From: a virus
DNA: 64,000 nucleotides
IMG/VR virus record: IMGVR_UViG_3300032242_001280
Direction: 5' to 3' (one strand)
Part shown: piece after piece, positions 2,897-60,445 of the stretch
How the letters are laid out: each line of letters begins with the position of its first letter
How positions within the stretch are numbered: the stretch's first letter is position 1
The notes under the pieces: model-generated
Database searches by the model: none
The model's input: only the letters and a program-made list of their open reading frames with translations
What the model was told of the DNA's origin: nothing
Made by a program: the position numbers and the translations under genes

Positions 2897-5800
2897 ATGG
2901 CATCTAATACTAGACAAACTAACATATTTGCTACTGAAGATTGGAAGAAGATTTATACAACCTTCTCTAATGCAGATTTTCAAAGTTATGACTTTGAAAC
3001 TCTTCGTAAGGTAATGGTCGATTATATCAAAACCTATTATGCTGAAGATTTTAATGATTTCATTGAAAGCAGTGAATATGTAGCTCTCCTTGACCTTATT
3101 GCGTTTACTGCACAAAGTGTGGCTTTTCGTGCAGATTTAAATGCTCGTGAAAATTTTCTTGAAACAGCAGAACGCCGTGATAGCGTCCTGAAACTAGTAA
3201 AACAATTAAATTATAATCCTAATCGCAATGTTGCTGCAAGTGGATATTTAAAGATAAATTCTGTTAGCACAACTGAAAATGTTAATGATGTCAACAGCAA
3301 AAATTTAAGTCGCGTTAATATAACTTGGAATGATGCTAATAATGCTAATTGGGTAAGTCAATTTACACAAGTATTAAACGCTGCATTTACTAGTAGTCAA
3401 AAAGTTGGTAAACCATATGCTAGTAAAACAATCAATGGCGTTCGTACAGAGCAATATAATATTGCCATACCAAATACTATATTGCCGATATTCAGCTTTG
3501 GTACAAATGTAAACACTATACCAACAAACTTTGAAGCAGTATCTGCGAACATTCTGACTACTGACACTATTACTGAATCAGATCCAGGAACTCGTGGACA
3601 ATTTGGTATAATATATCAAAATGATAGTCGCGGAAATGCCAGTGCAAATACTGGATTTTTTATATATTTTAAGCAGGGACAACTTAATAGTATAGACTTT
3701 ACTATTAACGAGAAAATTGCTAATCGTGTATTCAGCATTGGAAGTGATAATGTAAACAACAGTGATGTATGGATGTATGAATTAGTAAATGGAACATTGG
3801 GAAATCAATGGACTCAAGTTGCTAATACTTCTGGCAGTAATGCAATATACAATTCAGTGGCGCGTGGTATAAGAACACTTTATAGCGTTAACACTCGCAT
3901 CAATGATCAAATTGATTTAGTGTTTGGTGACGGCAGCTTTAGTGATATTCCACTAGGAAATTACCGTTCTTATTATCGTATCAGTAATGGATTAACTTAT
4001 AGAATATCTCCAAGTGACATGGGTAATGTAATTATTGCCATTCCTTATATCAGTAGCAATGGGCGAACTGAAACACTTAGTTTAAATGCAAGTTTGCAAT
4101 ATACTGTTAGCAATAGTAGCCGCCGTGATTTAACAAGCGAAATTAAACAAAAAGCTCCACAAGCATACTATACTCAAAATCGTATGGTTAATGGCGAAGA
4201 TTATAACATACTTCCATATACAAACTATAGTGACATTGTTAAAGTTAAATCTGTAAATCGTTTTGCAAGCGGAGTTAGCCGTGGTTTAGATATTACTGAT
4301 CCAACAGGAAAATATACTTCAACAGATTTATATGCAAAAGATGGTGTATTTTATAAGAATCAATATAATAAAACTTTTAATTTTACATTTGCAAGTCGTA
4401 ATGACATATTAACAGTATTAAATGCACAAGTAATGAAAATCATGGGAGATTATCCTATGAAGCATTTCTATTATGAAAATTGGTCCACAATTGAACTCAG
4501 TTCATTGCAACCAACTACATGGACTCGTACAACTGATGATACCAGCACCAGCACTGGTTTCTTTTACGCATCAGATGATACTACAAAAAAACCTGTATCA
4601 ATTGGTATCGGTAATACAGACTACAGAAAATATCTATTAATTGGAAGTCTTATTAAATTTGCTGCACCAAGTGGACAATATTTTGATGCTACTAATACTT
4701 TAGTTACTGGAACTCCGCAACTTAGCACGGATAGAGTTTATATTTGGGCAAGCATCCAAAGTATTACTGGAACAGGCAACAGCACCGTCCTTGTTGCTGG
4801 AAGAAAGATTGGTGCAGTAACAATTAGTGAAACAATTCCAAGTGGCGCAATAGTTGATCAAATTTATACACCGTTTTCAAACACTTTGCAATATAACACT
4901 GTTAATACTATAGTAAGCTATATTTTAAATAAAACTGAGTTTGCACTTGAATATAGGTATAATCTTACTGCATCTAATGTTGACCCTTGGTACATTGTTC
5001 CAATAACCAGCGTTGATTCAACTTCCGAATTTAATTTAACTACGCAAGGAACCACCAGTAATAGTAGCTGGTTGTTTAAGTTTAATACAGATGGCGTAAA
5101 ATATACTGTGACATATCGTCAGCTTGATTATGTTTTTGGAAGCTCGTCACAAGTAAGTTTTATTAATACTAATCCATATGCAGTATATGATGCAGCAACC
5201 AATACGCTAATTAATGATAATATTCGTGTTCTTGCTGTAAATGCAAATATATCAAATGATGTCAATTTAAATATTTTCAAAAATGTAGTAATGAGTGATG
5301 GCTATACTGATAGCACAAGAATATATGTTACCTATCCAGTAAGTAGCACAAGTAGATTGCCAACTGATCCAAATATTTTTAGTGAAATAGCCAGCAGTTC
5401 TGGATTTGTATTTTTTAAACAGTATATTGATAAAGATAATTTAATAAGATACAGTGTTGTACCAACTGGCGGCATCAATGTATTATATACTACTTTTTCA
5501 CAGATAAACTATGTTAGAAATACATTTCCAACAGGCACTGTATTTTATGCATCCGTTGATCAGATGTTTTATCAAATTCAATCTATAAACGGCGTTGCTA
5601 CAATAGTTGATGTTAGTAACTCTTATCAAGTATTTGTTGGCAGACAAAATTTGATATTTGAATATCAACACAATGCCGAAAATACTCGTCGCATTGACCC
5701 TGCCGCTACTAACCTTATAGATACATACATATTAACTCGTAGCTACGATGAAGTTTATAGAAACTATGTTGCTGATAATACAGGCACTGTAGAAAAACCA

Positions 5801-6303: not shown

Positions 6304-9300
6304 ATGGCTAAGCGCAGAAGTATTGATTTTCTACCGTCAGTTTTTAGAACTAAAACTAACCAAAGATTTCTAAATGCAACGGTTGACCAACTGATTCAAG
6401 AACCAAGTCTTAAAAAGATTTATGGTTATATTGGTCAACAAGATCAAAGTTCAGTATTTCGCCCATCTGATTATTATATCAATGAAAACGACAGCTATTC
6501 TCAATTCTATCAGCTTGAGCCTGGCGTGGTAATTAAGAAGCGACAAAAAAATAGTAATACTTTTACTATTGATAATATCTATAACTATCCAGATTTACTA
6601 AACCAATTAGTTTCTAGCGGCGCAATTACTAACGATCACCAGCGTTTGTTTTCTAACAGATATTATAGTTACAACGGATTCGTTGATCTTGATAAGTTGA
6701 CAAACTATCGTCAGTATTATTGGGTGCCTACTGGTCCGTTGCCAGTTGATGTTACTGCCAGTGGAATTTCTTTAATAAAAGAATTTAATGTGCATCGTAT
6801 AAGTTACACTGCAAATAACCAAACTGAATTACAAAGTGCTAGTATAGGACAAAGCGGATATGTAATAGATGGATATGAAAATATTGTTAATCCAACTATT
6901 ACTCTGCAGCGCGGTGGTCGATATACATTTAATCTTGGACAAAAAGGTCATAAATTTTATATTCAAAGTGAAATTGGAACCAGCGGGGTAAGCGTCGTCC
7001 AAGCAAATATCAACACAAGAGATGTGCTAGGCGTTTCAAATAATGGTAGCGAAAGCGGTACTTTAATTTTTAATGTGCCCCTTAAAACCGCACAAGATTC
7101 TTTAATATCATTGGATACTATACAAAATATAGATATGATAGCGCATGTTCCTTATAATGCTATGCAAGGACAAAATTATGATACATTTATTCAAAATTAT
7201 AATTTAGACGGCGTTAAAGCATTTTCTACTATAACACTAAGCATTGACTGGCCATTTAATGATGGGGATTGGCTAGATGTTCCTGTAAATCAACGCAGCG
7301 GAATTTGGCAAGTTACTATTGACAATAATAAATTTTTACCTGATGGTGTAACTAATAACCCAAATTATAGAAATATGTCATTGGTGTACTTGAATGATTG
7401 GGCAGAAAATACTAAAACTTTTGTTAATCAAGGTGACAAGTACGGACACACATATGTTTATAGAAATTCAAACGGAGTAATTACTCAGTTTCCAACTATA
7501 ACTGCTCCTCTTAGTACACTATATTATCAGGATGCTGATAATCCATTAATTTATGGCGAAATAAGACTAGTTGACCCTATCCCAGGAACCTTTTTAAATA
7601 TTAATGACATTATTGGGCATGATCAGTATACCAGTCCAAATGGCATTAAATTTTCAAGCGGATTAAAAGTAAAATTTACTGGCGTGACCTTTCCAACAGA
7701 ATATCAGAATAACGAATATATTGTTGAAGGTGTTGGTACTAGTATCAAACTTTTAAAATATAATGAGTTAGTAACGCCAGAAATAATAAACCAAAATGTT
7801 GGCGATGTATTTGGTAGCGACACTATTGGATTTGATGATAGTAATTTTGATGGCACAATTAATGCTCCAACACAAAAAGATTATGTAACAATAAACCGCT
7901 CTAGCGCAGATGGCAATAGTTGGAGTCGCAATAATCGTTGGTTCCATCGTGAAGTGTTGCAATATGCTGCAGATAAGTCAAATCAAATATGGAATTTTGA
8001 CGCTGCGCAGCAAGCTCAGCGACCTATCGTTGAATTTATTCCAAACTTAAAGTTATTTGATTATGGCACAAATTATGCTGGAGCCGTAACAGTTTTTGAT
8101 AGTAATACAACTGACGCTTTTTTTCAAATAGAAGGGCAAAATAATTACGCTCTTATTAAAAATGGAAAATATGTAAGTGATAATAGATTACTGCAGAACG
8201 GACAAACTGTGATCTTTTTAAATGATGTTGATCCTAATGTAAGAAAAACAATATATCAAGTTCAAAGTATCCGTCCACGCAGTTCAGCAACATATAATTT
8301 GCCAACTATTGCAACATCACATGCAGGGACAAATACTATTTTTCTAGCAGATGTTGGAAATATTAAAGTAAATCAAAAAGTAACTTCAAGTTTAATTCAA
8401 CAAACTCAGCCAGCATTTACAACTACTGCTAGTCAAACTAGTTTCTTTTGTAATTTAATTTCAAACCTTGGCGATTTTGATGCTTATTATTTTAATGTTT
8501 ATTTGAATAATGTGCTGCAAACTAATAATGTAGATTATAGCGTAACATATCAACAATCAGTATACTATACTGGTTCAAGTTTAGTTACATCAACTGTTAA
8601 TACTATTAATTCAAACAATAATATAAATTTACCGACTATTGCTACTACATATGCTACTGTTGTATCTGGAAGTAATATTATAAGCATTAATAGTGGAAGT
8701 GGCATTGTAAATGGACAAGCAATATCAGGAACTGGTATTCCAGTTGGAACAACTGTTATAAGTGGCGGCGGTACTAGTTCACTAACTCTGAGTAACACTT
8801 GCACACAATCACTAACATCAGTAACTGTTACAACTTATGCCAATATTCAAAGTGGCCAAGTGATAGTTGATAATGGTGGAATATTTCAAAACGGTACTAC
8901 TGTTATAAGTGGTGGCGGAACCCAAACTTTACAACTTAGCAAGGTAGCGACTGCTACTGCTTCTGGCGTTGCTATAAATGTTTATCAAGCATCATCGAGC
9001 TATTATAATCCTACTATAAATTTTTTAAACAAAGTAATAAATTCTTATTCTTTTGTTAGTACGGCTGGACAAACTGCATATGGTTTAGTTAATACTAGTA
9101 TTTCTGCTACTACCAATTATAGATATGATGTTTATGTTAATGGTACACTTAAAACAATTACTTCAGATTATACGGTTAGTGCAGATGTAAATGGTCATCC
9201 TATTATAAATTTAAATTCTGCACCAATAACTGGTTCTGCGGTTGTTATTAACAATGTTGTAACTGGACCAGCAACTGGAACAACAGTATTAGTTGAGTAT

Positions 9301-12300
9301 ATTCCGCTATCAACTCCTATTTTACCAAATACTACTGTTACTAGCATTGATTCTGTAAACAACATTGTTTATATTAGTACTGCAATAAATTCTGATATTG
9401 CAGCAGGGTTGTATCTGACTTTTGATAATAGTTCCGATCAAATTCATCTTGTTCCAGTTAAGCAAGTATCAGATGGCGACAATGTTATTGCTATGGAAGG
9501 TGAAATAAACCAAGGAAATGTGTATTTTTATGATTCTGGCGTTTGGAATCTTGCTCAACTAAGAAATAGTCGTCCACAATTTCCGTTGTTTGATGTCATT
9601 GATATTAATGGATTTAGTTTAAGTGATACTACAGTTTATCCAAGTAGTAATTTTCGTGGTAGCAAACTTTTTGGATATGCAATTGGAAACTTAACTTCAA
9701 TTACTGATACTGTACTTGGATTTCCTTTAGTTAGACAATCTGTTGGAAATATTGGAGATATAGTTTTTGAAAATTATTATATTACTGATACATTTAACTA
9801 TAATTTAAATTTTAAAGACAACATTACTAATGTCAGTACAGGGTTTGTAGCAAGAATAAACTACTGGAAAAATTATTTTTTTGAAAATGGGTGGACTGTT
9901 GTATCTGATAAAAGCAAACAATATATTACAAAAATCTTTACTGCAAACGAAGCAAAGAAAAATAATTTTGATCTTGAGTTAGTATATAAGCACAGCTATT
10001 ATGAAAATAATATATTTGTGTATGTCAATGGAATTGTTGTTCCATCAACCGCATATACTGTGCAAATTAATAATATTACCACTACTATTAAATTTAATAC
10101 TGATTTGGCGGCAGGTGACAGGTTGTTTGTAAAGATAAATGGCGTTAGTAATATTTTTAAACAAAATTATACTATGCCTAAAAATATTACTAACAACAGT
10201 GAAAATTTAAATTTTAACACCATCACCCTTGGTCAAATTAGAAATCATTTGATTGAAATTGGCAATAATTGTTTAAATTTAAACGGTGAACCAGCGGGTA
10301 GTAATAATTTTAGAGATATAAACTACTCAAATATTGGTGGTAAACTTTTACAACATAGTTCAAGTTTAAGACAAGCATCTTTGCTATTGGCAAATCCAGA
10401 TGTTGATCCAGTTCGTGCCATTACATACTCAGAAAACAATTATCAAAATTTTAAAAATCAGTTAATTGATTTAATTAATAATAAAGAATTTCCTGATCCA
10501 AAAGATGCTCGCGGTTCACTAGATTTAATTTTATCAGATTTTATTAAATTAACAAACACTAACAGCACATTTTATTATACTGACATGTTAGCAACTGGTA
10601 GTCAATATATTACTAACAGCTACACTATACAAGATACCACATATCGTTCTTTCAATCTTACCAATACATATGCAAATAAAAAAAGTAGTTACAATGCTGT
10701 TCTTGTTTATCTAACTAATAAATTATATGGTACACGGCAGTTATTAGTCAACGGGGTTGATTATACGATTAACAATTTTACCGTAACAATATCATCTACT
10801 GTTAGCATTTCAAGACTTGATACTATAAGCATTTATGAATATGCAAGTACCCTTGGATGCAATGTTCCTGCAACGCCAAGCAAACTAGGATTGTATCCTA
10901 AATTTGTTCCACAGAAAATTTTAGATGATACATATTACACGCCACAACATATGATAATTGGACATGATGGAAGTTACAATCTTGCATGGAACGATTATAG
11001 AGATGATATTTTATTAGAGTATGAAAAGCGTGTATTCAATAATATTGCAGTAGATTATCAAAATAACAGTGACTATAGTTTAGTAAGTGTTGTTCCTGGC
11101 GCATTTAGAGTAACAGATTATAGCATTGTAGAATGGACACAACTATTAAGCGGCAGCTACCTTAGCTGGAGCGGACAAAACAATGTAGATATTTTTACTA
11201 ATAACAATAACACAAATTCACTGTTTGGATTTAATTATAGCAAAGCAACCGATAAGTTATTTGGACAAACACTGCCTGGATATTGGCGTGGAATTTATAA
11301 TTATTTTTATGATACTGACAAGCCACATACAAACCCATGGGAAATGCTAGGGTTTACCGAAAAACCAAAGTGGTGGGATAATCGTTATGGCGTAGCGCCT
11401 TATACAAGTCAAAATATTACCTTGTGGGGAGATTTAGAACTTGGATTAATTTATAACGGTGCGCCAAATAAAAGTTACATTGATTCAAAATATACAAGAA
11501 CTGGGCTAAATCAAATAATACCAGTAGATGAACACGGCAACTTGTTGCCGCCACTGAAATCTTTAATTGCAGAATATGATTCAAGAACAGCCAATGATAA
11601 TTGGAGAGTTGGCGATCAAAGTCCAGCAGAAACTGCATGGAGACGCAGCAGCAGTTATCCTTTTGCAATGCAAATTGCTTGGTTCTTGGCAAAACCCGCT
11701 GAATATTGTGCATTGAATTATAATTCTCGTGATGTTGTTTACAACGAATTGCTAGGACAAATAATAAATCAAAAAACAAATACTCGTATTTTTGATTATG
11801 GCATCACTAGTGCAAGTGAATTTGTTCCTGGTTTCAATGTTTGGGTGCGTGATTTATTAACCAGTAATAATTTAGATGTAACTTATAACTGGTTAGACAT
11901 TGCTATGAATAGTAGTTTTAATTTAGTTTATAAAATGTCTGGTTATACTGACAAAAGTTATTTGACAGTTGTTGCTGATCAAGTAAGTCCTGCTAGTACA
12001 AATAATAGTGTGCTTATACCGCCAGAAAATTACAAAATTAAAGTTACAAAAAGTGCACCAATAGGAAGAGCAATCTATAGCGCAGTTATAGTACAAAAAA
12101 CTAGCACAGGATATCAGATATCTGGATTTGATAAGATTCGTCCATATTTCTTAACAATTCCTAGCAAAGCAAGTGGCAATAGCTATGGACTAACAGTGGG
12201 GCAGCTTACTGGAATAATTTATAAAGACGCACAAGATACTGTTACTAGTTTTCCTTATGGCACGATATTTTCAACACATCAGCAAGTTGTTGATTTCTTA

Positions 12301-15300
12301 ATAAGTTATGGCAGATATCTAATAAACCAAGGGTTTATCTTTAATGATTTGCTTGCAGATAACCAAACTGTAAGTGATTGGACGCTAGCTGCTAAAGAAT
12401 TTTTATTTTGGGATCAACAAAATTGGGGTAACAATACTGTTATTGGATTAACTCCAACTGGAACTTCTGTAAATTATAGCAATGTATTTGGTGTAGTAGA
12501 TAAGATCACAAACGACCAATCATATACTAAAGTAATCGACAGTGATGGTACTACATTAACTGGCAGAGATTATCGTGTTTATAGAGATGATAATAACTTT
12601 AGCATTTCACTAAAGAATCCGCAAAAAGGTATTCATCTATTAGATATTTTTATAGTTCAGTATGAGCATTGTTTAGTTTTTGACAACTCAACAGTGTTTA
12701 ATGACATTTTATATGATGAACAAGTTGGAAGTCGTCAATTTAGATTGCGCCTAGATGGTGTCAAAACTCAAGGATGGAATGGAAGTCTATACGCGCCAGG
12801 ATTCCTAGTAAATTACAGCGATGTTGCTAATTGGACATCGTATACTGATTACTATACTGGAGATATTGTTTTATTTAAAAATCAATACTATGCCGCTAGA
12901 AATTTCATTCCCGGAGCAGTTAAATTTAATTCAACTGATTGGTATAAAATTTCTGGAGATTTGTTGAAAAAACAATTGATTCCAAATATGACATCCAATG
13001 CTGCTCAATTTACTAATTTTTATGATCCTGACACTGCCGATCTTAATACTAGTGCAGATATTCAAAGTAAACACGCCACTGGTTTCCAAGATAGACAATA
13101 CTTTACTAATTTAGGTCTTGACCGTACAAGCCAGTATAAGTTTTACTTAGGAATGATTACTCAAAAAGGAACACAAGCTGTTCTAAATGCTTTCTTGAGA
13201 AATCAACAAAAGAACATTGACAGTGAAATTGCTGTCTCTGAACAGTGGGCTATTAAACTTGGCAACTATGGTGGTACAAACAATGTTGATAAATTAGACT
13301 TCAATATTGGCAATAGCAAAGCTATTAATAACCAATATCTATTTGAATTTATCGATCAATATGATACTGCAAACAATGAACTAAACAGTATTAAACCAAG
13401 TGATTTATTTCTTGCTCCACGAACATATAATGCTAATATATTTGCACAAACTGAATATCAAAAGCCAATAGTATCAACTGCAGGACCAGTTAATATTACT
13501 GATGCTACTGCAAGTGTGTATGATATAAACAAGATTTATAATATCAGTAATTTAAGCAATATATTAGGCGAGTCAAGCAAAATATGGATAGCAGCAGACA
13601 GTGAAAATAAATGGGGCGTATATCGTTTAACACAAACAAGTAGAGTTAATGTTACTGGAGTAAACCAGACTGGTTCTACTGAAATAACTTTTTCAACTGA
13701 TATACCACATGGACTGAATACTTTTGATTATGTAATGATCAAAGGAGCAAAAATAGTTGCTTCTACTGGCACATCTGGTGTTATTGATTTAAGTGGGTTT
13801 TATAGAGTTAGCAACATTCCAAATGCAGTATCATTTTCAGTAAAGATTGTTAACAATACTACTATTAGCAGCGGAAAACTATCTGCGCCAATGTTTAAAT
13901 TGATAAATGTGCGATTTGGCACAGTAAACGATTTTGCTAATTTTACTCCAACTCGTGGTTGGCAAGACAGTGAAGTTGTTTATATTGATAATGGTCCAAG
14001 TGGATATCAAGTATTACAAAACACTGACAGTTGGAAATTTACAGAAACACGAAGCCCTGTCTTTACAAAACCTAGCGATTTGTATGGTTCAAGTATTAAA
14101 GTAAACTTTACTCAAAGTTTTGCCGCAGTTGGTGCTGCTGGAAAAAATACTACTGGTCAAGTATTCATTTACGGAAAAAATCAAGAAAATGTATGGCAAG
14201 AATTAGGAATATTAACTCCTGAAGCTAGAAGCTCTGGGTTTGGCAGTGCAGTTGATGTAAACAATAATAATATTGTAGTGGCATCCGCTCCATCATCCAA
14301 CAAAGGCAGCGTGTATACGGCAATTGCAAACAGTCAAGCTATTAGCGTAAACCAAATTATACATTATGACAACATTTATATTACTACTAGTACTCCTGTT
14401 ACTCCTTATGGAAACAGTGCAATATTAGTAGATAGCAGTTATGGTCTCGCTAACTTTGCAGCAGGAATGAGAGTCGTTGGTGCAAACATTGCAAGCGGAA
14501 CAGTTATCAGTAATCTTACAACGGGTTTTCCATACAATGTTATTGGAATTAGTTCAAACTTAGCAGTCACTAGCAGCACAATTGCTGGCGGCGCAAATAT
14601 TGCCATATATCCAACACTTAATGCAAATAGTGCGCTTGGAACAAGTCTATGTGCTAGTACAGATGGCAATTGGTTGTTTGTTGGCGAACCAACTCTTCAA
14701 CGAGTATTTGTTTACAAATACCAAATTGTAAATCCAAGCAATTCAAACAGAGTAGGCGATGGATATACAACTATATTTTCATATCCACCAACTGCTTATA
14801 GAATGAATCTTGGTCCACTTGATATTAAAGTATATGTTAGTGGAAAACAATTAGTGCCATATCTAGATTACATCAGAAACCCAGATGGAACAGATAGTAT
14901 CGCATTTAATACCGCACCAGCAAATGGCGCAGCTATTAGTATAGTATATGAAAATTATTTCCAAGAAGTTAATCAAATTGTTACCGATGACCCAACCGTT
15001 TCTGGGTTTGGTTCAAGCGTTTCTTGTAGCTATGATGGTCGTGAAGTTGTTATTGGTGCTCCATACAGCAACAGTGCCTTTGATATAACTTATAAAAATT
15101 CAGGAAAAGCATTTGTTTATGAAAGAACTGTAGAAAATTTTATATCAGATGGTATATCTTCTACTTTTAATTTAAGCAATGCTTTTGTTGGAAGTGATAC
15201 TATTACTACGGCAAATCTTGTAACATACCCTACGGTGACTGTAGATGGTGTTGCTACAGCAGCAACATTTAGTTATGCTAATAATTCCGTAACTTTATCC

Positions 15301-18300
15301 AGTGTACCAAGTCCCGACAGTATAGTTGCAGTATCAACAAATCAATTTATTATTACAAAAATTGCTACTTCTGATTCTGGTCAAGTTGGTAGTAACTTTG
15401 GTCAAGTTGTGCAAATGTCTAGAGATTCGCAAACTCTTTATGTAAGTGCTCCGGGTTGGAATTATACAAGTTATCAAAATGGTGCAGTGTTTGCCTTTGT
15501 CAACATGCCTAAACGATGTGGTATAGCCACTGGAACTAATACAAATGTTAATATGGCTGCAAATTTGCAGTTGCGAATCAATGATTTCTTAGTTACATTT
15601 ACTGGCGGCAATGCGGCTCAGTGTGTAAAAGATATTAATAATGCAAATGTTATTGGCGTAACTGCTAGTTTAACTCCTACTTCTACTGTGCAAATAGTAA
15701 GCAATGATCAAGTAGCGGTGAATAAACTTAGACTTCGTAATGAATATGGTGATCCACTAACTGCCATGGGTATAGTTTCTTGGCAGTTAACACAGAAGTT
15801 GTTTAGTCCAATAATTCAAGACTCAGAGCGTTTTGGTGAAAAGTTAAGTCTCAGTCCAGATTCTAAAACAGTCGTTGTTGGTACTACCTTAAGCAATAAC
15901 AAGATTACAACAACTTTTGATGCAAGCAAGACTACATTTGATATTAATACTATTAGAATCATTGACACGGTTCACACAAGTGGTTCTGCACATATATTTG
16001 AGTATATTGCTGGTAAATCAAATAAAATTGCAGATATGGGAAGTTTAGTTTATGCTAAGCTGTTAACTCAACCAAATATTTCAAGTCTTGATAAATTTTC
16101 AACTGGCGTTGATGTCAGTGACAATTTTATCTTTGTTGGTTCTCCAAACTCTAAAATTCTAGGAAATCAAACAGGCGCAATGTACATATATTACAACGCA
16201 AATTCTGCTCCTGTTTGGAATACTATTAGAGAACCAAGTACTGCTACTGATAGCAGAATGATAGACAGAGTTTACATATACAATTCAGCAACTAGTAAAT
16301 TGATTGCAGATTTGCCAGTGTTAGATATTCTTCATAACCGCCTTCCTATCTCGGCAGAATCTTATATTGATTATACTATAAATTATGATCCTGCAGTATA
16401 CAGCAATGTTCCTAGCACAGTAAGCTTTAGTGTTGATAAGAAAAATAACTGGGGCGAAGAACAAGTTGGCAAGCTGTGGTGGGACACTAATAGTATAAAA
16501 TATTTTGATAATTCACATGGATCAAATCTTGAAAAATTTAATAGATGGGGACAAGCATTTCCAGTAAGTTCAGTAGCGATTTATGAATGGATTGAAAGTT
16601 CGCTATTACCAAAAGATTGGGCTGCGGCATATCCATTAAATCCACCGCTGTATACTGTTAATGATGTTTATAGCACAAAAACTGTTGTTGACCATTCAAC
16701 TGGATTAGTTACAACAAAGTATTATTTTTGGGTTCGTAATAGCACACGAGTTGACTCAAATAATGTCAGACCAAGTGCTTTTGAAATTCAAACTGCAATT
16801 TCACAACCTAAACTATCTGCCGAGCCATTTGCTGCAGTAATTTCTAGTAATTCAATTGCGCTGTATAATATTACTAATTTAATAAATGTAGATACTAACT
16901 TGGTAATTGAATACAAAAACACTATTAAACCACAGCTTATTCACAATGAATGGACAATGTTTGATGATGGCACCGATCTTGGTATTGCGCCAGAGTTTAT
17001 CAATAAGATAAATGATAGCCTATCTGGTCAGGATTATAGTGGCAGAGTTATACCAGACCCTACATTGAGTATTGGTCAAAAATATGGCATGGATATTCGT
17101 CCACGCCAATCATTGTTTAGTGATCAATATACTGCCAGAAAACTTTATATTGAAAAATTAAATGAAATTTGCATGAAATATCCAATGGTATTGACTAGAA
17201 AAAGTGCAGTACAAGCATTAAATGTTGGCGAAGCACTGCCGTTGCATTATACATATGTTACTTCTGTTGCAAATTTAACTGAACTTGGTTATCTAGATAC
17301 AAATATATACAATGCAGGTGACTTAGTATTAGTTGTAAATGACAGCAATGCAAAGAATGGATGGTCTTTATATAAATTAAATGTAGAATTTCCAAATACT
17401 AGAACTTGGTCAATTTACCAAGTTCAAACTTACAATGTAAACGATTATTGGTCATATGCTGACTGGTATAGTGACAAATATAATCCTGAGTTTAATATAA
17501 CTTATACTATAGATACTGAAAATCAAATTGGATCGTTAAATTTAAATGTAAACGATTTAATTTATATTAAAAATAGTAATACAACTGGTTGGAAAATAGT
17601 TTTAGTTAATATTAATGGATTAGAATTAATTGGACAAGAAAATGCTACTATTCAATTTAGTTCAACACTCTATGACCAAATATCAAGTGGTCAAGGTTTC
17701 CAAACTAGTAGTCTTGAAACTGTTGGATTTGCAAGCGATTCTAATTTAGAATTTTCTGTAATATTTGGTATAGTTCGTGACCTATTGCTTGTTAACGAGT
17801 ATAGAGTTGATTGGAAGAGTATATTGCGATTGTTGATCGATACTATTGCAACTCAACATTTACAAACTGATTGGCTAATGAAAACAAGTTTTGTTGACAT
17901 ATATCATCGTGTTCGTGGACTTGATCCATTGCCAGTGTATCTGCCACAACCAGAATCTATTGTAACTGATTTCTTTAACGAAGTAAAACCATTTCATACT
18001 AAGTTAAAACAATATGTTGCCAAATATGATAATAATAATAATATTGATTATGCATATTCCAGCTTGACAGATTTTGATTTGCAACCATATTATAACACTG
18101 CAATAAGCAAGTATCGTAGTCCTCAACTAAACAATAGTTTAGATACTAAAATACTTAATACACAATCGCTGTATCAACCTTGGAAGAACCACCACACATA
18201 TCAAATTTTGAGAATAGATGTTTCTGCAAATGGCACTGGATATACTGGTTCAACTACTGTAGTAATTGAAGGCGATGGCACTGGTGCTACGGCAAAAGCG

Positions 18301-21039
18301 TATATTTTAAATACAGGTGTTCATACTATTGAAGTTACTAATCCAGGAACTGGCTATACGCATGCGGTAGCTAAAATTTATGGTCGTGGTTCGGGTGCCG
18401 CTGCTTCAGTAATATTGGGTAATAGTCCTGTTCGTCTGCTTAATACTAATATTAAGTTTGATAGATATACATATTTTAACAATATATCTGATTGGAAATC
18501 AAATAAACTTTACACTGTTGATACGGTTGTTGTTAATGGCGCAGAACCATATAGAGTAATTACTGCTCATACGAGCGGAACAACTTTTGACTTTACGAAG
18601 TTTGCGCTATTAAGAGTAAAAGTATGGTACCCATATACCGAATATGCCGTTAACGATATAGTAATCTATCAAAATACTAGCTATAAAGCAATTAATACAT
18701 TTACAAGTATTGAATTGTTTGATACTAATAACTTGGTTAGTTATAATGGGTTATGGTTAGACAATGCTGCTGATCGCATTTGGGCATATTATTCTCCTAT
18801 GTCTGGTATGGCAGGTCGCGATCTTGCTCAGATAATGATTGGTATGGAATATGGTGGCGTAAATGTTAAAGGACCAAACTTTGATCAAACCCCAGGATAT
18901 GATGTTAATAACTTTGATAGTATAGAATATGATTTAAGAACACAAGATGCTGGCGGCGTGTTTGATGATTATGGTGCACAAGCTGAAGATACCTATATCC
19001 AAAGCGCATTTACTGACACTGGGCTTGGCTTGCGTCCATCAGATATTATTGTTTTAGGTGGCGAGTTTGTTGACAAATACTCAAGCAATGCACCAGAGGA
19101 ATTAATTCCTGGAATAATTAACGATACCCTTGATATCAAGATTAAAACATTGCCTGTTAATTCTGGCAGTGGTGACATAATGATATTCACCAACCAATAT
19201 AGTGTTACCAATAGTTTTAGTTTTGATCCAGCAATTACAGGCGTTGCTTGGCCAATCGGCGGAATTGAAAAATTCTTTATCATTGATAGAATAGCAGGAC
19301 CAATTGCCGAAGGCGTAGATTATACTGTTAATTGGCAAAATAAAACTATTAATTTAAATTACAATGTTAATACTACTACATTTTTCTATTGTATAATGAT
19401 GGGAAGTAATGGAACAAATCCGCTATTTGACCAAGATTATACTGCAGATGGTATTCAAACAGATTTTGTAATTCCAGATAGTATTCTAAACACAGTTCAA
19501 CAAGCATATGTCAAGGTAAATGGAAGCGCAGTTAGTAACTGGGTACTAGTCAATAAGTTATTAAATGGAATTAATACATTAGCTGTTAGATTTGATACCG
19601 CTCCTGTGGCTGGCTCATATATTCAAGTTCACCTGTACTCAGTTGCTGTTGGAACTCGTGCCTATACAGAAATTACTGAACAAACATTTATAACTAGCGC
19701 AACACCTAATTATCCAGCAGATTATACATATGTGTTTAGCAATCCTGAAGAATATCAAGAACCACTAAGTGCGTATTCAATCGTAAGACTTAATGCGTCA
19801 GATTTGATTCCTCCACAGCAAAGTTATTATGTTGGTGATGCGGTGACAACTGCATTTAGCTTAACACGAACATATATTCCAGACACATATGTCGGCGCTA
19901 CTATTGAAATTGAGTTAGCAAACTATGTAGCAACTATATCACCAACAGCAATTTTAGTAATCATAGATGGTGTTGTTCAAAGATACAATATTGATTATAC
20001 TATTAGTGCAGATGGAATAAACATGCCAATAGTAGTATTCACTGCTGCGCCAGCATTGAATAGTAAAATTACTATCAGCGATTCAAGTAATAGTGATTAT
20101 ACAATTTATGGTGGAAACAATCTTATCTTAAATCAAAATATAGTGTTAAACCCAAACAGTGTAATAACTGTTCTTACTAGAGGAAATCATGATCCTAGTC
20201 AAGTGTATACTAAGATTTTCAGTGGCAACGCAAGTAATTCAATTGTTGATATTGATTTAGGTTATGATGGTATTGGATTTGATGATAGTGGATTTGATAA
20301 TGAGTTAAGCACAAATGTTTCAAACGCCATTTATACATTGCCGTTTGCTGTAACAAACATTAATCAAGTATATGTTACTCTTAAATCGCCAGGCACAACT
20401 GGCGGACGACCATTGCTGCCATATTATGATTACAATCTTGTTTCTCCAACTAAGTTGGCGATGAGCAACAGTTTAGGATTATATACTAATAGTACTGTTA
20501 TTGTTAGAATTTATGGCAGTACTATTCGCGAAACGACAGTTGAGTTTAGAATATTCAAAGATATTAATAACAATACAAGATACTATGCTGTAAGACCAAG
20601 CCGTGTAACTCGTTTAAGCAAAGTGTTAAATCCTACTGATGAGTGGGTATATGTTGAAAGTGTAGCCAACTTGCAAAGTCCCAACCCAAAAACTAACATT
20701 GCTGGCGCAATTTTAGTCAATGGTGAAAGAATTACATATGGCACAGTTGATACGGTAAACAATCGTTTAGGAAATATTCGCAGAGGAACAGCAGGAACTG
20801 GCGCAAGTATCCATGAAGTAGGAAGCCAAGTTGACGATGTTGGTTCAACGCTTATCATACCAAACAGCAGTGATAAAGTTATTACTGTAGATCATGACAC
20901 TTATATAACTAATAGTGCTGGAACAAATGTGCTAGTACCTGCAAATGGAACTCTTATGCAAGGAAAAATGTTTATCAATCCTAGCGAAAGTTTACAGACT
21001 AGCTTAACTCAACAAGCAAAGTTTATAAGAGAACCTTAA
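6304..21039 (+). CDS. Giant virion structural/baseplate protein (4,911 aa) with beta-propeller-like and carbohydrate-binding-like modules
   Basis: Uninterrupted 14.7-kb ORF after gp6; starts RRSIDFLPSVF; FGxSV...VIGAP propeller-type repeats, W...Y..GDIV.Y CBM5/12-like motifs, GTGY repeats and FDxxxFD motifs. Confidence 0.75.
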   Translation: MAKRRSIDFLPSVFRTKTNQRFLNATVDQLIQEPSLKKIYGYIGQQDQSSVFRPSDYYINENDSYSQFYQLEPGVVIKKRQKNSNTFTIDNIYNYPDLLNQLVSSGAITNDHQRLFSNRYYSYNGFVDLDKLTNYRQYYWVPTGPLPVDVTASGISLIKEFNVHRISYTANNQTELQSASIGQSGYVIDGYENIVNPTITLQRGGRYTFNLGQKGHKFYIQSEIGTSGVSVVQANINTRDVLGVSNNGSESGTLIFNVPLKTAQDSLISLDTIQNIDMIAHVPYNAMQGQNYDTFIQNYNLDGVKAFSTITLSIDWPFNDGDWLDVPVNQRSGIWQVTIDNNKFLPDGVTNNPNYRNMSLVYLNDWAENTKTFVNQGDKYGHTYVYRNSNGVITQFPTITAPLSTLYYQDADNPLIYGEIRLVDPIPGTFLNINDIIGHDQYTSPNGIKFSSGLKVKFTGVTFPTEYQNNEYIVEGVGTSIKLLKYNELVTPEIINQNVGDVFGSDTIGFDDSNFDGTINAPTQKDYVTINRSSADGNSWSRNNRWFHREVLQYAADKSNQIWNFDAAQQAQRPIVEFIPNLKLFDYGTNYAGAVTVFDSNTTDAFFQIEGQNNYALIKNGKYVSDNRLLQNGQTVIFLNDVDPNVRKTIYQVQSIRPRSSATYNLPTIATSHAGTNTIFLADVGNIKVNQKVTSSLIQQTQPAFTTTASQTSFFCNLISNLGDFDAYYFNVYLNNVLQTNNVDYSVTYQQSVYYTGSSLVTSTVNTINSNNNINLPTIATTYATVVSGSNIISINSGSGIVNGQAISGTGIPVGTTVISGGGTSSLTLSNTCTQSLTSVTVTTYANIQSGQVIVDNGGIFQNGTTVISGGGTQTLQLSKVATATASGVAINVYQASSSYYNPTINFLNKVINSYSFVSTAGQTAYGLVNTSISATTNYRYDVYVNGTLKTITSDYTVSADVNGHPIINLNSAPITGSAVVINNVVTGPATGTTVLVEYIPLSTPILPNTTVTSIDSVNNIVYISTAINSDIAAGLYLTFDNSSDQIHLVPVKQVSDGDNVIAMEGEINQGNVYFYDSGVWNLAQLRNSRPQFPLFDVIDINGFSLSDTTVYPSSNFRGSKLFGYAIGNLTSITDTVLGFPLVRQSVGNIGDIVFENYYITDTFNYNLNFKDNITNVSTGFVARINYWKNYFFENGWTVVSDKSKQYITKIFTANEAKKNNFDLELVYKHSYYENNIFVYVNGIVVPSTAYTVQINNITTTIKFNTDLAAGDRLFVKINGVSNIFKQNYTMPKNITNNSENLNFNTITLGQIRNHLIEIGNNCLNLNGEPAGSNNFRDINYSNIGGKLLQHSSSLRQASLLLANPDVDPVRAITYSENNYQNFKNQLIDLINNKEFPDPKDARGSLDLILSDFIKLTNTNSTFYYTDMLATGSQYITNSYTIQDTTYRSFNLTNTYANKKSSYNAVLVYLTNKLYGTRQLLVNGVDYTINNFTVTISSTVSISRLDTISIYEYASTLGCNVPATPSKLGLYPKFVPQKILDDTYYTPQHMIIGHDGSYNLAWNDYRDDILLEYEKRVFNNIAVDYQNNSDYSLVSVVPGAFRVTDYSIVEWTQLLSGSYLSWSGQNNVDIFTNNNNTNSLFGFNYSKATDKLFGQTLPGYWRGIYNYFYDTDKPHTNPWEMLGFTEKPKWWDNRYGVAPYTSQNITLWGDLELGLIYNGAPNKSYIDSKYTRTGLNQIIPVDEHGNLLPPLKSLIAEYDSRTANDNWRVGDQSPAETAWRRSSSYPFAMQIAWFLAKPAEYCALNYNSRDVVYNELLGQIINQKTNTRIFDYGITSASEFVPGFNVWVRDLLTSNNLDVTYNWLDIAMNSSFNLVYKMSGYTDKSYLTVVADQVSPASTNNSVLIPPENYKIKVTKSAPIGRAIYSAVIVQKTSTGYQISGFDKIRPYFLTIPSKASGNSYGLTVGQLTGIIYKDAQDTVTSFPYGTIFSTHQQVVDFLISYGRYLINQGFIFNDLLADNQTVSDWTLAAKEFLFWDQQNWGNNTVIGLTPTGTSVNYSNVFGVVDKITNDQSYTKVIDSDGTTLTGRDYRVYRDDNNFSISLKNPQKGIHLLDIFIVQYEHCLVFDNSTVFNDILYDEQVGSRQFRLRLDGVKTQGWNGSLYAPGFLVNYSDVANWTSYTDYYTGDIVLFKNQYYAARNFIPGAVKFNSTDWYKISGDLLKKQLIPNMTSNAAQFTNFYDPDTADLNTSADIQSKHATGFQDRQYFTNLGLDRTSQYKFYLGMITQKGTQAVLNAFLRNQQKNIDSEIAVSEQWAIKLGNYGGTNNVDKLDFNIGNSKAINNQYLFEFIDQYDTANNELNSIKPSDLFLAPRTYNANIFAQTEYQKPIVSTAGPVNITDATASVYDINKIYNISNLSNILGESSKIWIAADSENKWGVYRLTQTSRVNVTGVNQTGSTEITFSTDIPHGLNTFDYVMIKGAKIVASTGTSGVIDLSGFYRVSNIPNAVSFSVKIVNNTTISSGKLSAPMFKLINVRFGTVNDFANFTPTRGWQDSEVVYIDNGPSGYQVLQNTDSWKFTETRSPVFTKPSDLYGSSIKVNFTQSFAAVGAAGKNTTGQVFIYGKNQENVWQELGILTPEARSSGFGSAVDVNNNNIVVASAPSSNKGSVYTAIANSQAISVNQIIHYDNIYITTSTPVTPYGNSAILVDSSYGLANFAAGMRVVGANIASGTVISNLTTGFPYNVIGISSNLAVTSSTIAGGANIAIYPTLNANSALGTSLCASTDGNWLFVGEPTLQRVFVYKYQIVNPSNSNRVGDGYTTIFSYPPTAYRMNLGPLDIKVYVSGKQLVPYLDYIRNPDGTDSIAFNTAPANGAAISIVYENYFQEVNQIVTDDPTVSGFGSSVSCSYDGREVVIGAPYSNSAFDITYKNSGKAFVYERTVENFISDGISSTFNLSNAFVGSDTITTANLVTYPTVTVDGVATAATFSYANNSVTLSSVPSPDSIVAVSTNQFIITKIATSDSGQVGSNFGQVVQMSRDSQTLYVSAPGWNYTSYQNGAVFAFVNMPKRCGIATGTNTNVNMAANLQLRINDFLVTFTGGNAAQCVKDINNANVIGVTASLTPTSTVQIVSNDQVAVNKLRLRNEYGDPLTAMGIVSWQLTQKLFSPIIQDSERFGEKLSLSPDSKTVVVGTTLSNNKITTTFDASKTTFDINTIRIIDTVHTSGSAHIFEYIAGKSNKIADMGSLVYAKLLTQPNISSLDKFSTGVDVSDNFIFVGSPNSKILGNQTGAMYIYYNANSAPVWNTIREPSTATDSRMIDRVYIYNSATSKLIADLPVLDILHNRLPISAESYIDYTINYDPAVYSNVPSTVSFSVDKKNNWGEEQVGKLWWDTNSIKYFDNSHGSNLEKFNRWGQAFPVSSVAIYEWIESSLLPKDWAAAYPLNPPLYTVNDVYSTKTVVDHSTGLVTTKYYFWVRNSTRVDSNNVRPSAFEIQTAISQPKLSAEPFAAVISSNSIALYNITNLINVDTNLVIEYKNTIKPQLIHNEWTMFDDGTDLGIAPEFINKINDSLSGQDYSGRVIPDPTLSIGQKYGMDIRPRQSLFSDQYTARKLYIEKLNEICMKYPMVLTRKSAVQALNVGEALPLHYTYVTSVANLTELGYLDTNIYNAGDLVLVVNDSNAKNGWSLYKLNVEFPNTRTWSIYQVQTYNVNDYWSYADWYSDKYNPEFNITYTIDTENQIGSLNLNVNDLIYIKNSNTTGWKIVLVNINGLELIGQENATIQFSSTLYDQISSGQGFQTSSLETVGFASDSNLEFSVIFGIVRDLLLVNEYRVDWKSILRLLIDTIATQHLQTDWLMKTSFVDIYHRVRGLDPLPVYLPQPESIVTDFFNEVKPFHTKLKQYVAKYDNNNNIDYAYSSLTDFDLQPYYNTAISKYRSPQLNNSLDTKILNTQSLYQPWKNHHTYQILRIDVSANGTGYTGSTTVVIEGDGTGATAKAYILNTGVHTIEVTNPGTGYTHAVAKIYGRGSGAAASVILGNSPVRLLNTNIKFDRYTYFNNISDWKSNKLYTVDTVVVNGAEPYRVITAHTSGTTFDFTKFALLRVKVWYPYTEYAVNDIVIYQNTSYKAINTFTSIELFDTNNLVSYNGLWLDNAADRIWAYYSPMSGMAGRDLAQIMIGMEYGGVNVKGPNFDQTPGYDVNNFDSIEYDLRTQDAGGVFDDYGAQAEDTYIQSAFTDTGLGLRPSDIIVLGGEFVDKYSSNAPEELIPGIINDTLDIKIKTLPVNSGSGDIMIFTNQYSVTNSFSFDPAITGVAWPIGGIEKFFIIDRIAGPIAEGVDYTVNWQNKTINLNYNVNTTTFFYCIMMGSNGTNPLFDQDYTADGIQTDFVIPDSILNTVQQAYVKVNGSAVSNWVLVNKLLNGINTLAVRFDTAPVAGSYIQVHLYSVAVGTRAYTEITEQTFITSATPNYPADYTYVFSNPEEYQEPLSAYSIVRLNASDLIPPQQSYYVGDAVTTAFSLTRTYIPDTYVGATIEIELANYVATISPTAILVIIDGVVQRYNIDYTISADGINMPIVVFTAAPALNSKITISDSSNSDYTIYGGNNLILNQNIVLNPNSVITVLTRGNHDPSQVYTKIFSGNASNSIVDIDLGYDGIGFDDSGFDNELSTNVSNAIYTLPFAVTNINQVYVTLKSPGTTGGRPLLPYYDYNLVSPTKLAMSNSLGLYTNSTVIVRIYGSTIRETTVEFRIFKDINNNTRYYAVRPSRVTRLSKVLNPTDEWVYVESVANLQSPNPKTNIAGAILVNGERITYGTVDTVNNRLGNIRRGTAGTGASIHEVGSQVDDVGSTLIIPNSSDKVITVDHDTYITNSAGTNVLVPANGTLMQGKMFINPSESLQTSLTQQAKFIREP

Positions 21040-54681: not shown

Positions 54682-54710
54682 AATATAGCATATTATTTTG
54701 TTCTGTCAAG
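54682..54710 (-). promoter_or_regulatory. Early cassette promoter (AAA+ gene)
   Basis: cTTGACA-N16-TATATT with TGn. Confidence 0.85.
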
Positions 54711-55380: not shown

Positions 55381-55409
55381 AATATAACACAGAATTAGAG
55401 GCTGTCAAG
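55381..55409 (-). promoter_or_regulatory. Early cassette promoter
   Basis: cTTGACA-N16-TATATT with TGn. Confidence 0.85.
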
Positions 55410-55611: not shown

Positions 55612-55640
55612 AATATAACATGGATTTAGGAGTTGTCAAG
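55612..55640 (-). promoter_or_regulatory. Early cassette promoter
   Basis: cTTGACA-N16-TATATT with TGn. Confidence 0.85.
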
Positions 55641-56144: not shown

Positions 56145-56173
56145 AATATAACACAGGTTTAAGGATTGTCAAG
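56145..56173 (-). promoter_or_regulatory. Early cassette promoter
   Basis: cTTGACA-N16-TATATT with TGn; the -35 contains the upstream TGA stop. Confidence 0.85.
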
Positions 56174-56816
56174 CATCTTTTTTAATCCGCACATAGTGCA
56201 AACGGGTTTGGTTATTGTCATCGTGCTTGTGAACACGGGCTGTCAAATTAATGACAGTTCCACGCGCCAGTTGTTCGCTGAGAGGGAAGCAAACAAGGCA
56301 ATTATCGGCAGTAATTGCGGTATGGTACCACTTATTGTAATTGGCGCTATAAACCGCTGATTTGATTGTAATTTCTGCGGAAATGTTATCGCCAACCTTG
56401 CCAATGTGACGGCTATTTTCTGAAATTTGACGGATTTCATCGCGAGAATTTTCACGATCAATAGCGTTTTTATAGGAATTTGGAACGCTAGCAACCAGTG
56501 CTAAGGTCTTGAAATCCTTGGCATTAATCTCTTTTTGTTCGGTCAGCAGAACCAAGTTCTTCCAATAATCATGAAGAGTTCCAGCAACAAGTTCAATCAT
56601 TTTGCTGTCAAGATATTGGAGAATTTCATTAGCAATTTCAATGTCTTGTGGCAAATGGTCAAAGTTTACCATTTCTGGATTGAGAAATTCACGCATAAGT
56701 GCGCCATTGGAAAGTTCACCTTCCTTGGCATCATAACGCTTGATATACTTGCCATTAACCCTTTGGGCGGCTACGGCGGCGGTCATGGCATCTTTGAGAG
56801 AAATGGTATCAGTCAT
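56169..56816 (-). CDS. Hypothetical protein with possible C-terminal OB-fold
   Basis: Start reassigned to ATG 56816 (MTDTIS), which overlaps the arfA-like stop (ATGACTGA) and follows AAGGA; HIGKVGD...TRLHYV C-terminus. Confidence 0.75.
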   Translation of the reverse strand: MTDTISLKDAMTAAVAAQRVNGKYIKRYDAKEGELSNGALMREFLNPEMVNFDHLPQDIEIANEILQYLDSKMIELVAGTLHDYWKNLVLLTEQKEINAKDFKTLALVASVPNSYKNAIDRENSRDEIRQISENSRHIGKVGDNISAEITIKSAVYSANYNKWYHTAITADNCLVCFPLSEQLARGTVINLTARVHKHDDNNQTRLHYVRIKKDA

Positions 56817-56928
56817 TGCTAGTTTCCTTTTGCTTCTTACGATTATAACTGCCTTTGCCTTTTTTGGCAAGAACTATTCTCTGACGGTACAGAGGTTTCG
56901 CTAATTCTCTTGCTTCTGCGCTGCGCAT
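56809..56928 (-). CDS. arfA: Alternative ribosome-rescue factor A-like protein, 39 aa (not in the ORF track)
   Basis: MRSAEARELAKPLYRQRIVLAKKGKGSYNRKKQKETSND*; matches the ArfA core PLFRQRV...KKGKGSY-RK; own promoter and GGAGA RBS. Confidence 0.82.
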   Translation of the reverse strand: MRSAEARELAKPLYRQRIVLAKKGKGSYNRKKQKETSND

Positions 56929-56954
56929 TGCCTTTCTCCATTGCTTATATTATG

Positions 56955-56983
56955 AATATAGCATGGATTATATATCTGTCAAG
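56955..56983 (-). promoter_or_regulatory. Early cassette promoter (arfA-like gene)
   Basis: cTTGACA-N16-TATATT with TGn; the -35 contains the upstream TGA stop. Confidence 0.85.
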
Positions 56984-57380
56984 ACATATTTTGAATGGCT
57001 TGTCCTAAATTATTGTCACAAAGTGTCAGCATTACACTTAATTCGTTATCCATTAGGAATAGTTCCCCTTTGCTCATTTGATAAAACCAAGGGTGATTAT
57101 GGTATCGATCCATCAGCACAATTTCTTTGCCGTTTATTTGATATTTGCGCCTATCTATATGATGTTCATAGAATTTATAACCATAATTACGCATTAGTTC
57201 AAATGCAGTATTATTAAGCCTAAACCCAAAATTTTTATTGTTATTGTACCAATAAAGAATATAGATATTTTTTTGATTTATGTTTGGAATAAATGCATCT
57301 TCGCCATGGGCCAAATGATATAACTCATGGGTCCATTCAGTTTTAGATTTTTTATTTTGTTGGGTAAACGGTTGGTCCAC
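56979..57380 (-). CDS. Hypothetical phage protein
   Basis: 133-aa ORF; WYN...GFRLN motif; overlaps the upstream gene. Confidence 0.75.
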   Translation of the reverse strand: MDQPFTQQNKKSKTEWTHELYHLAHGEDAFIPNINQKNIYILYWYNNNKNFGFRLNNTAFELMRNYGYKFYEHHIDRRKYQINGKEIVLMDRYHNHPWFYQMSKGELFLMDNELSVMLTLCDNNLGQAIQNMS

Positions 57381-60416: not shown

Positions 60417-60445
60417 AATATAACATATTTATTGGTCTTGTCAAG
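60417..60445 (-). promoter_or_regulatory. Early cassette promoter (BA14K-like gene)
   Basis: cTTGACA-N16-TATATT with TGn, then TATAGTCAA and GGAGA. Confidence 0.85.

Follow-up and report, generated by a model that had tools for sequence, protein, structure and literature searches.

ArfA (YhdL; PF03889; PDB codes 5MGP, 5MDV, 5U4I, and 5H5U), of Escherichia coli and other gamma- and betaproteobacteria, is the canonical ribosome-rescue factor to which the gene considered here is related, and reviews confine it to these two classes (PMC8012679). A survey of 15,259 genomes recovered arfA in none of the 2,376 alphaproteobacteria included (PMC11633108). In the canonical case, cleavage or termination within the ORF truncates the arfA mRNA, and the protein builds up only when tmRNA is overwhelmed (PMC8012679). 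The residues tied to its function are Phe25, the strand Q27-E30, and the KKGKGSY loop; N-terminal residues 1 to 14 become ordered when RF2 opens; the A18T variant of the E. coli protein binds and recruits RF2, yet does not activate it; a construct of residues 1 to 40 is inactive, and 46 to 48 residues are ordered in the cryo-EM structures; finally, ArfA/RF2 pairs are species specific (PMC8012679). A second rescue factor, ArfT of Francisella tularensis, is a peptide of ~40 residues that works with RF1 or RF2 and whose gene reaches its stop codon without an intervening terminator or RNase III site (PMC6299226). Among phages, two cultured isolates already have a gene annotated as ArfA, one of them with transcript data: gp30 of Pelagibacter phage HTVC027P, which is called ArfA and is highly transcribed both early and late (PMC12753301), and gp10 of Citromicrobium phage vB_CbaS-RXM (PMC8953757).

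We analyzed a window of 64,000 nucleotides (the whole stretch of DNA under study; IMG/VR record IMGVR_UViG_3300032242_001280), whose tape measure, baseplate wedge, tail fibers, and 4911-aa ORF mark it as phage DNA. The baseplate wedge is ~35% identical to its counterparts in phages Atu_ph07 and RaK2, and the opposite strand carries a replication and nucleotide module. The 4911-aa product is encoded by a single ORF (6304-21039, plus strand) in the tail/baseplate region, flanked by the baseplate wedge gene on one side and by smaller structural genes on the other. Homologs of the neighboring gene occur on contigs of 342 to 348 kb, and an IMG/VR fragment of 87 kb is rated 26% complete, so that the genome is estimated at about 345 kb. 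By these contig sizes, the uncultured virus is a predicted jumbo phage, and the position of the ArfA-like gene described below is kept in related phages of ~345 kb. Among cultured phages, those with the closest DNA polymerases infect Sinorhizobium (50% identity) and Agrobacterium (47%).

The ArfA-like gene and its expression signals

The locus comprises the following features, all on the minus strand.

56809..56928, minus: ArfA-like gene (P0001), 39 codons plus TGA, supported by Pfam PF03889, hhalign, dN/dS, and conserved gene order
56169..56816, minus: translationally coupled gene for a 215-aa protein (phrog_3628), whose start overlaps the ArfA stop by 8 nt
56979..57380, minus: upstream gene for a 133-aa protein, function unassigned, with its stop codon within the -35 hexamer
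56955..56982, minus: predicted sigma-70-type promoter with an extended -10, TTGACA (56982-56977), N13, TG (56963-56962), N, TATATT (56960-56955)
56935..56939, minus: Shine-Dalgarno sequence GGAGA, 6 nt 5' of the ATG; GGAGA in the relatives, GGGGA in one
54682-54709, 55381-55408, 55612-55639, 56145-56172, 56955-56982, and 60417-60444, minus: six copies of TTGACA-N13-TGNTATATT, each 5' of a small gene cassette

A preliminary description of this DNA had reported a hidden 39-codon ORF with a promoter, a GGAGA ribosome-binding site, and a coupled downstream start. We recovered the TGA-terminated ORF with residues 12 to 31 exactly as quoted there, the GGAGA at its place upstream of the ATG, and the start of the next gene (ATG at 56816), which overlaps the ArfA stop within ATGACTGA. 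In one respect that account needs correction: in public catalogues the ArfA-like gene is no hidden one, since gene callers predict it and JGI labels a 90%-identical copy ArfA. A 51-codon frame extended upstream, called in some relatives, was rejected, because a TAA closes it in the window (stops interrupt it in several relatives too); the ATG at 56928 is therefore the start.

Related metagenomic phage contigs carry the gene with protein identities of 85 to 100% and in identical gene order, with genes for 103-aa and 126-aa proteins upstream and the gene for the 215-aa protein downstream. In a more distant relative, in which the ArfA-like protein is 65% identical, both this order and the pairing with the 215-aa gene are preserved. 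Residues 11 to 35 form a core that is almost invariant among the relatives. Comparison with the most diverged close relative (contig L165) gave 16.5 synonymous and 6.5 nonsynonymous differences (dN/dS of 0.04), and comparison with two contigs of the set L166-L168 gave a dN/dS of 0.15. The gene is under purifying selection (dN/dS of 0.04 to 0.15), and the 39-codon ORF is confirmed as a genuine gene, beyond what chance would produce. Searches of NCBIfam with the protein gave no match, the PHROGs search gave weak matches alone, to families of unknown function, and megablast of the region against cultured phages likewise gave none. The long proteins that headed the phmmer results (P0009 and P0010) were discarded as unrelated TPR-repeat proteins, their match being explained by a common PLYRQ motif. 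The TPR repeat contains AEPLYRQAL, which suffices to rank it first when the 39-residue query is used, a trap for searches with this peptide.

The promoter hexamers agree with the consensus at 11 of 12 positions. The predicted promoter ends 26 bases upstream of the ATG, its -35 hexamer overlaps the TGA stop of the gene for the 133-aa protein, and transcription is predicted to start at ~56948. The TTGACA-N13-TGNTATATT arrangement occurs six times in the window, always on the minus strand and between 54.7 and 60.4 kb, where 0.01 copies are expected by chance, and at the ArfA-like gene the spacer and -10 are unchanged in 8 of 9 related sequences. The assertion that the gene has its own promoter stands: it is the first gene behind a sigma-70-like promoter that belongs to a repeated set. 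This set fits a group of strong promoters of an early type before small cassettes, read by the host polymerase, from which early timing may be surmised.

The downstream partner had no match in Pfam. Its structural model is confident (pLDDT of 88.5); it is helical toward the N terminus and has an OB fold at the C terminus. VIA-align found a resemblance to nucleic-acid-binding OB domains (Z up to 8.7), which identifies a generic OB fold only, and Foldseek returned no confident match. We observed the 215-aa protein in this phage group only. In contig L165, the gene directly after the ArfA-like gene is a different one, for an 84-aa protein, and it too overlaps by 8 nt; the coupling is therefore a property of the 3' end of the ArfA-like gene and not of a fixed partner.

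The preliminary description had further called the gene natively short and stop terminated, which agrees with what we found. The relatives share the native stop (mostly TGA; TAA in L165), and shuffled versions of the 191-nt transcript region fold about as well as the region itself (z = -0.33), which has no hairpin of the RNase III type. An Rfam search of the region from 54 to 60 kb returned no match. The features by which stop-less mRNA is expressed, namely, a hairpin, RNase III site, or terminator inside the ORF and a hydrophobic tail on the protein, are absent. With a conserved stop of its own and no significant RNA structure, the gene is therefore predicted to be expressed independently of tmRNA, and we infer that it escapes tmRNA control, a reading consistent with the sequence. 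The sole stem inside the ORF has 5 bp (56894-56879). We considered this terminator-like stem as a source of stop-less mRNA and rejected it as too weak, in a region that, taken overall, is unstructured. A pair in this stem (56879-56894, minus strand) is T-A in the window and G-C in most relatives, so that the pairing is kept; neither change alters the amino acid (CCT/CCG and AGA/CGA), and a mismatch occurs in one relative.

Comparison with canonical ArfA

The ArfA family profile recognizes the phage protein, as the preliminary description had proposed should be checked: Pfam PF03889 scores 38.8 bits (curated cut-off, 25.5 bits; E = 6e-10), with the match spanning positions 20 to 43 only of the 44 in the profile. 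ArfA chains from the PDB match at E = 3e-4. The likeness to E. coli ArfA claimed for residues 12 to 31 amounts to 14 of 20 identical residues, the E. coli stretch having been verified against the PDB chains. To compare whole families, we aligned a profile of the short forms with hhalign to a canonical ArfA profile, which was built from gammaproteobacterial sequences and onto which function was mapped from the literature (PMC8012679). The alignment is ungapped and sets phage residues 2 to 36 against canonical residues 13 to 47 (probability of 98.7%; E = 2e-16). Its 35 columns are 51% identical, and the shared residues include the nonbasic Pro, Leu, Tyr/Phe, Gln, Ser, and Tyr. Judged by its sequence, the homology of the phage gene to ArfA of E. 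coli and its gamma- and betaproteobacterial kin over canonical residues 13 to 47 is secure.

The two proteins have in common a short helix (canonical residues 15 to 24), a Pro-Leu-aromatic-Arg-Gln-Arg motif, the beta-strand that pairs with RF2, the KKGKGSY loop, and a basic tail for the mRNA channel. Of the aligned functional residues, Phe25 corresponds to Tyr14 and the RF2 strand Q27-E30 to QRIV, both conserved in the relatives. Eleven residues follow GSY, and the tail reaches the equivalent of E. coli residue 50, which is beyond both the 46 to 48 residues ordered in the structures and the end of the inactive 1-40 truncation. In contrast, the phage protein has 39 residues, whereas canonical ArfA has 72 as encoded and about 55 when mature. 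It has no counterpart of canonical residues 1 to 11, among them Gly9 and Ile11, neither of which varies across the canonical alignment; Ala18 is matched by an arginine (Arg7), and in its relatives by a lysine; where the tail of canonical ArfA carries Lys-His, the phage protein has Gln33-Lys34, although Lys-His is present in some viral relatives; and there is no hydrophobic C-terminal tail. At the level of the gene, the hairpin or terminator in the ORF gives way to a stop codon of its own, and tmRNA control would not be expected.

Since the N-terminal segment is absent and Arg stands at the Ala18 position, activation of RF2 cannot be assumed. The interpretation in the preliminary description holds in part: the protein is a short ArfA homolog, and what had been overlooked is the missing segment for RF2 activation together with the Arg at Ala18. 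A predicted complex of the phage peptide with residues 100 to 348 of a SAR11 RF2 scored 0.01, in a run without controls, and carries no weight for or against binding. ArfA binds RF2 only on the ribosome.

Short relatives in phages and in SAR11

Scanning IMG/VR with a pattern-limited search, we found 163 viral contigs that encode an ArfA-like relative, 80 of which were kept; in all 80, the stop falls 7 to 43 residues after GSY (median, 11). The ESM Atlas holds clusters of 42- to 43-residue proteins labeled "ArfA domain-containing". Short, stop-terminated forms are thus common, which reduces the novelty of the phage gene. The two genes annotated in cultured phages, HTVC027P gp30 (58 residues with a native stop; 20.2 bits in Pfam, below the cut-off) and RXM gp10 (29.6 bits, versus 38.8 for the phage protein here), are likewise ArfA-domain genes of alphaproteobacterial phages with a stop soon after the basic motif. 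They differ in that HTVC027P (57 kb) and RXM (104 kb) belong to lineages other than that of the ~345-kb phage, their similarity is distant, and their ArfA role is by annotation. The closest cultured phages, Atu_ph07 and Phosso, gave no ArfA match. Roseobacter phage CRP-212 (accession no. MZ892988.1) has an unannotated ArfA-like ORF of 41 codons (L002:2980-3105, plus strand; 33.3 bits in Pfam, above the cut-off), which is embedded in a different frame within the 3' end of gp38 as annotated, a protein of ~1200 aa; either the two genes overlap or gp38 is annotated too long. A tblastn search of the phage collection with a SAR11 peptide gave no match, for which the low-complexity filter is the probable reason.

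In cellular genomes, a short ArfA-like frame is present in 62 of 151 sampled Pelagibacterales (E <= 0.01), with 26 of the 62 above the Pfam cut-off; the count takes in one unpublished genome (G114), on which the tally does not depend. The Pelagibacteraceae forms have ~38 residues and are stop terminated, with a median of 8 residues after GSY, as against a median of 27 in the canonical long forms of Xenorhabdus, Morganella, and Shewanella. One example is placed as follows.

L128:2992-3108 (locus set L085-L162), plus: SAR11 short ArfA-like gene, between housekeeping genes

The flanking genes in one SAR11 genome are a response-regulator-like gene and a gene for a PfkB kinase, with dapB and nth nearby; in such housekeeping surroundings, the SAR11 copy is therefore chromosomal. 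In five SAR11 genomes that carry the peptide, the genes with an RF-1 domain are those of RF1 and RF2 only, with no gene of ArfB size, a setting compatible with a working rescue factor. These SAR11 peptides are the nearest full-length cellular relatives of the phage protein. They resemble it in their length of ~38 residues, Ala6, Arg17, KG-GSY-RK, and native stop, and are 51 to 58% identical to it over the full length; they differ in being cellular, in having no promoter cassette, and in reading Lys-Lys-Tyr-Arg-Lys-Arg where the phage protein has Pro-Leu-Tyr-Arg-Gln-Arg. Together with the DNA polymerases of the Sinorhizobium and Agrobacterium phages, they make the suggested link to an alphaproteobacterial host plausible.

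Two further observations concern longer or paired forms. Metagenome-assembled genomes titled Denitrobaculum (L090 and L091), which we take to be an alphaproteobacterium, have long ArfA forms of 79 to 86 residues (39.9 bits in Pfam). On a contig of a Rheinheimera metagenome-assembled genome (L132), two ArfA-like ORFs, at 1570-1764 and 2977-3126, lie about 1.2 kb apart.

Proposed function and competing readings

We consider it fairly probable that this phage-borne, natively short ArfA homolog acts early, independently of tmRNA, in the RF2-mediated rescue of stalled ribosomes. The strong sigma-70-type promoter would be read early by host RNA polymerase, with the ArfA-like gene leading a cassette of two genes. 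With its own stop and no cleavage hairpin, the peptide, unlike canonical ArfA, would be made whether or not the host tmRNA is busy. On ribosomes that have run to the 3' end of a broken mRNA and stalled there, the basic tail of the ArfA-like peptide, KKGKGSYNRKKQK, would insert into the vacant mRNA channel. The QRIV strand and Tyr14 would add onto the beta-sheet of RF2, which would in turn liberate the stalled peptide and leave the ribosome available for phage messages. In this scheme, we infer ribosome binding, the recruitment and activation of RF2, the early timing, and a benefit during host mRNA decay or toxin attack. Counting against it are the lost N-terminal residues, the Arg or Lys at the Ala18 position, the altered Lys-His motif, the species specificity of ArfA/RF2 pairs (PMC8012679), and the lack of an ArfA match in Atu_ph07 and Phosso. 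ArfT resembles the proposed design as a release-factor-dependent peptide of ~40 residues with a basic tail and a gene without terminator or RNase III site; homology between the two is doubtful, the Pfam scan of the phage protein having listed ArfA alone.

An alternative, which we deem unlikely, is that the peptide fills the empty mRNA channel and may dock RF2 without activating hydrolysis, and so blocks tmRNA-SmpB or stalled host ribosomes; this could spare phage products from tagging or aid host shutdown. The absence of the segment that is ordered upon RF2 activation and the bulky Arg or Lys at the Ala18 position speak for such a blocker, and the E. coli A18T variant behaves in this way, binding and recruiting RF2 yet unable to activate it (PMC8012679). 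Against this, a chromosomal gene of equally short design, likewise with Lys in place of Ala18, sits among housekeeping genes in many SAR11 genomes, and the five SAR11 genomes checked show no ArfB; a cell would be unlikely to keep an inhibitor of rescue in such a setting. Moreover, ArfT establishes that a peptide of ~40 residues is able to activate release factors (PMC6299226).

The same precedent (PMC6299226) lends itself to another reading, to which we assign a similarly low probability: a rescue factor that differs from ArfA in mode, using RF1 as well as RF2, like ArfT, or another partner, possibly the OB-fold protein. The N-terminal half does diverge from canonical ArfA, and across the phage group the gene is translationally coupled to the OB-fold gene. 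However, the strand and the aromatic residue that contact RF2 are conserved, the 84-aa gene that follows in L165 shows that the coupling is not specific to the OB-fold gene, and the SAR11 copies have no OB-fold neighbor. Very improbable, finally, is a small basic peptide with some other role (nucleic-acid binding, or a leader ORF that drives coupled translation) whose likeness to ArfA is compositional, for although the protein is short and rich in Lys and Gly, and phmmer also caught unrelated TPR-repeat proteins through PLYRQ, the 35 ungapped columns at 51% identity take in nonbasic residues, the Pfam score is above the cut-off, the amino acid sequence itself is under strong purifying selection, and the family also exists without the coupled gene.

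Beyond RF2-mediated rescue by the phage homolog itself, we offer as a tentative and rather doubtful proposal that the short peptides of phages and SAR11 constitute a distinct, constitutive rescue system. Lacking the N-terminal segment and the small Ala18 on which canonical ArfA depends, such peptides would activate a release factor by a different mechanism, perhaps with a different release-factor specificity, and large phages would deploy them early to recycle ribosomes on degraded host mRNA without tmRNA tagging.

The phage gene is an ordinary instance within a large family, an unstudied set of minimal, stop-terminated ArfA homologs in phages and SAR11 that is easy to test. SAR11 is one of the most abundant bacterial groups, and ArfA has been described as a tmRNA-controlled backup of some beta- and gammaproteobacteria. 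Should the peptides prove to bind but not activate, they would represent naturally occurring inhibitors of ribosome rescue. If they are active, they would redefine the smallest release-factor-activating sequence and identify a possible backup rescue route for SAR11, and phages would bring their own ribosome-recycling factor early in infection.
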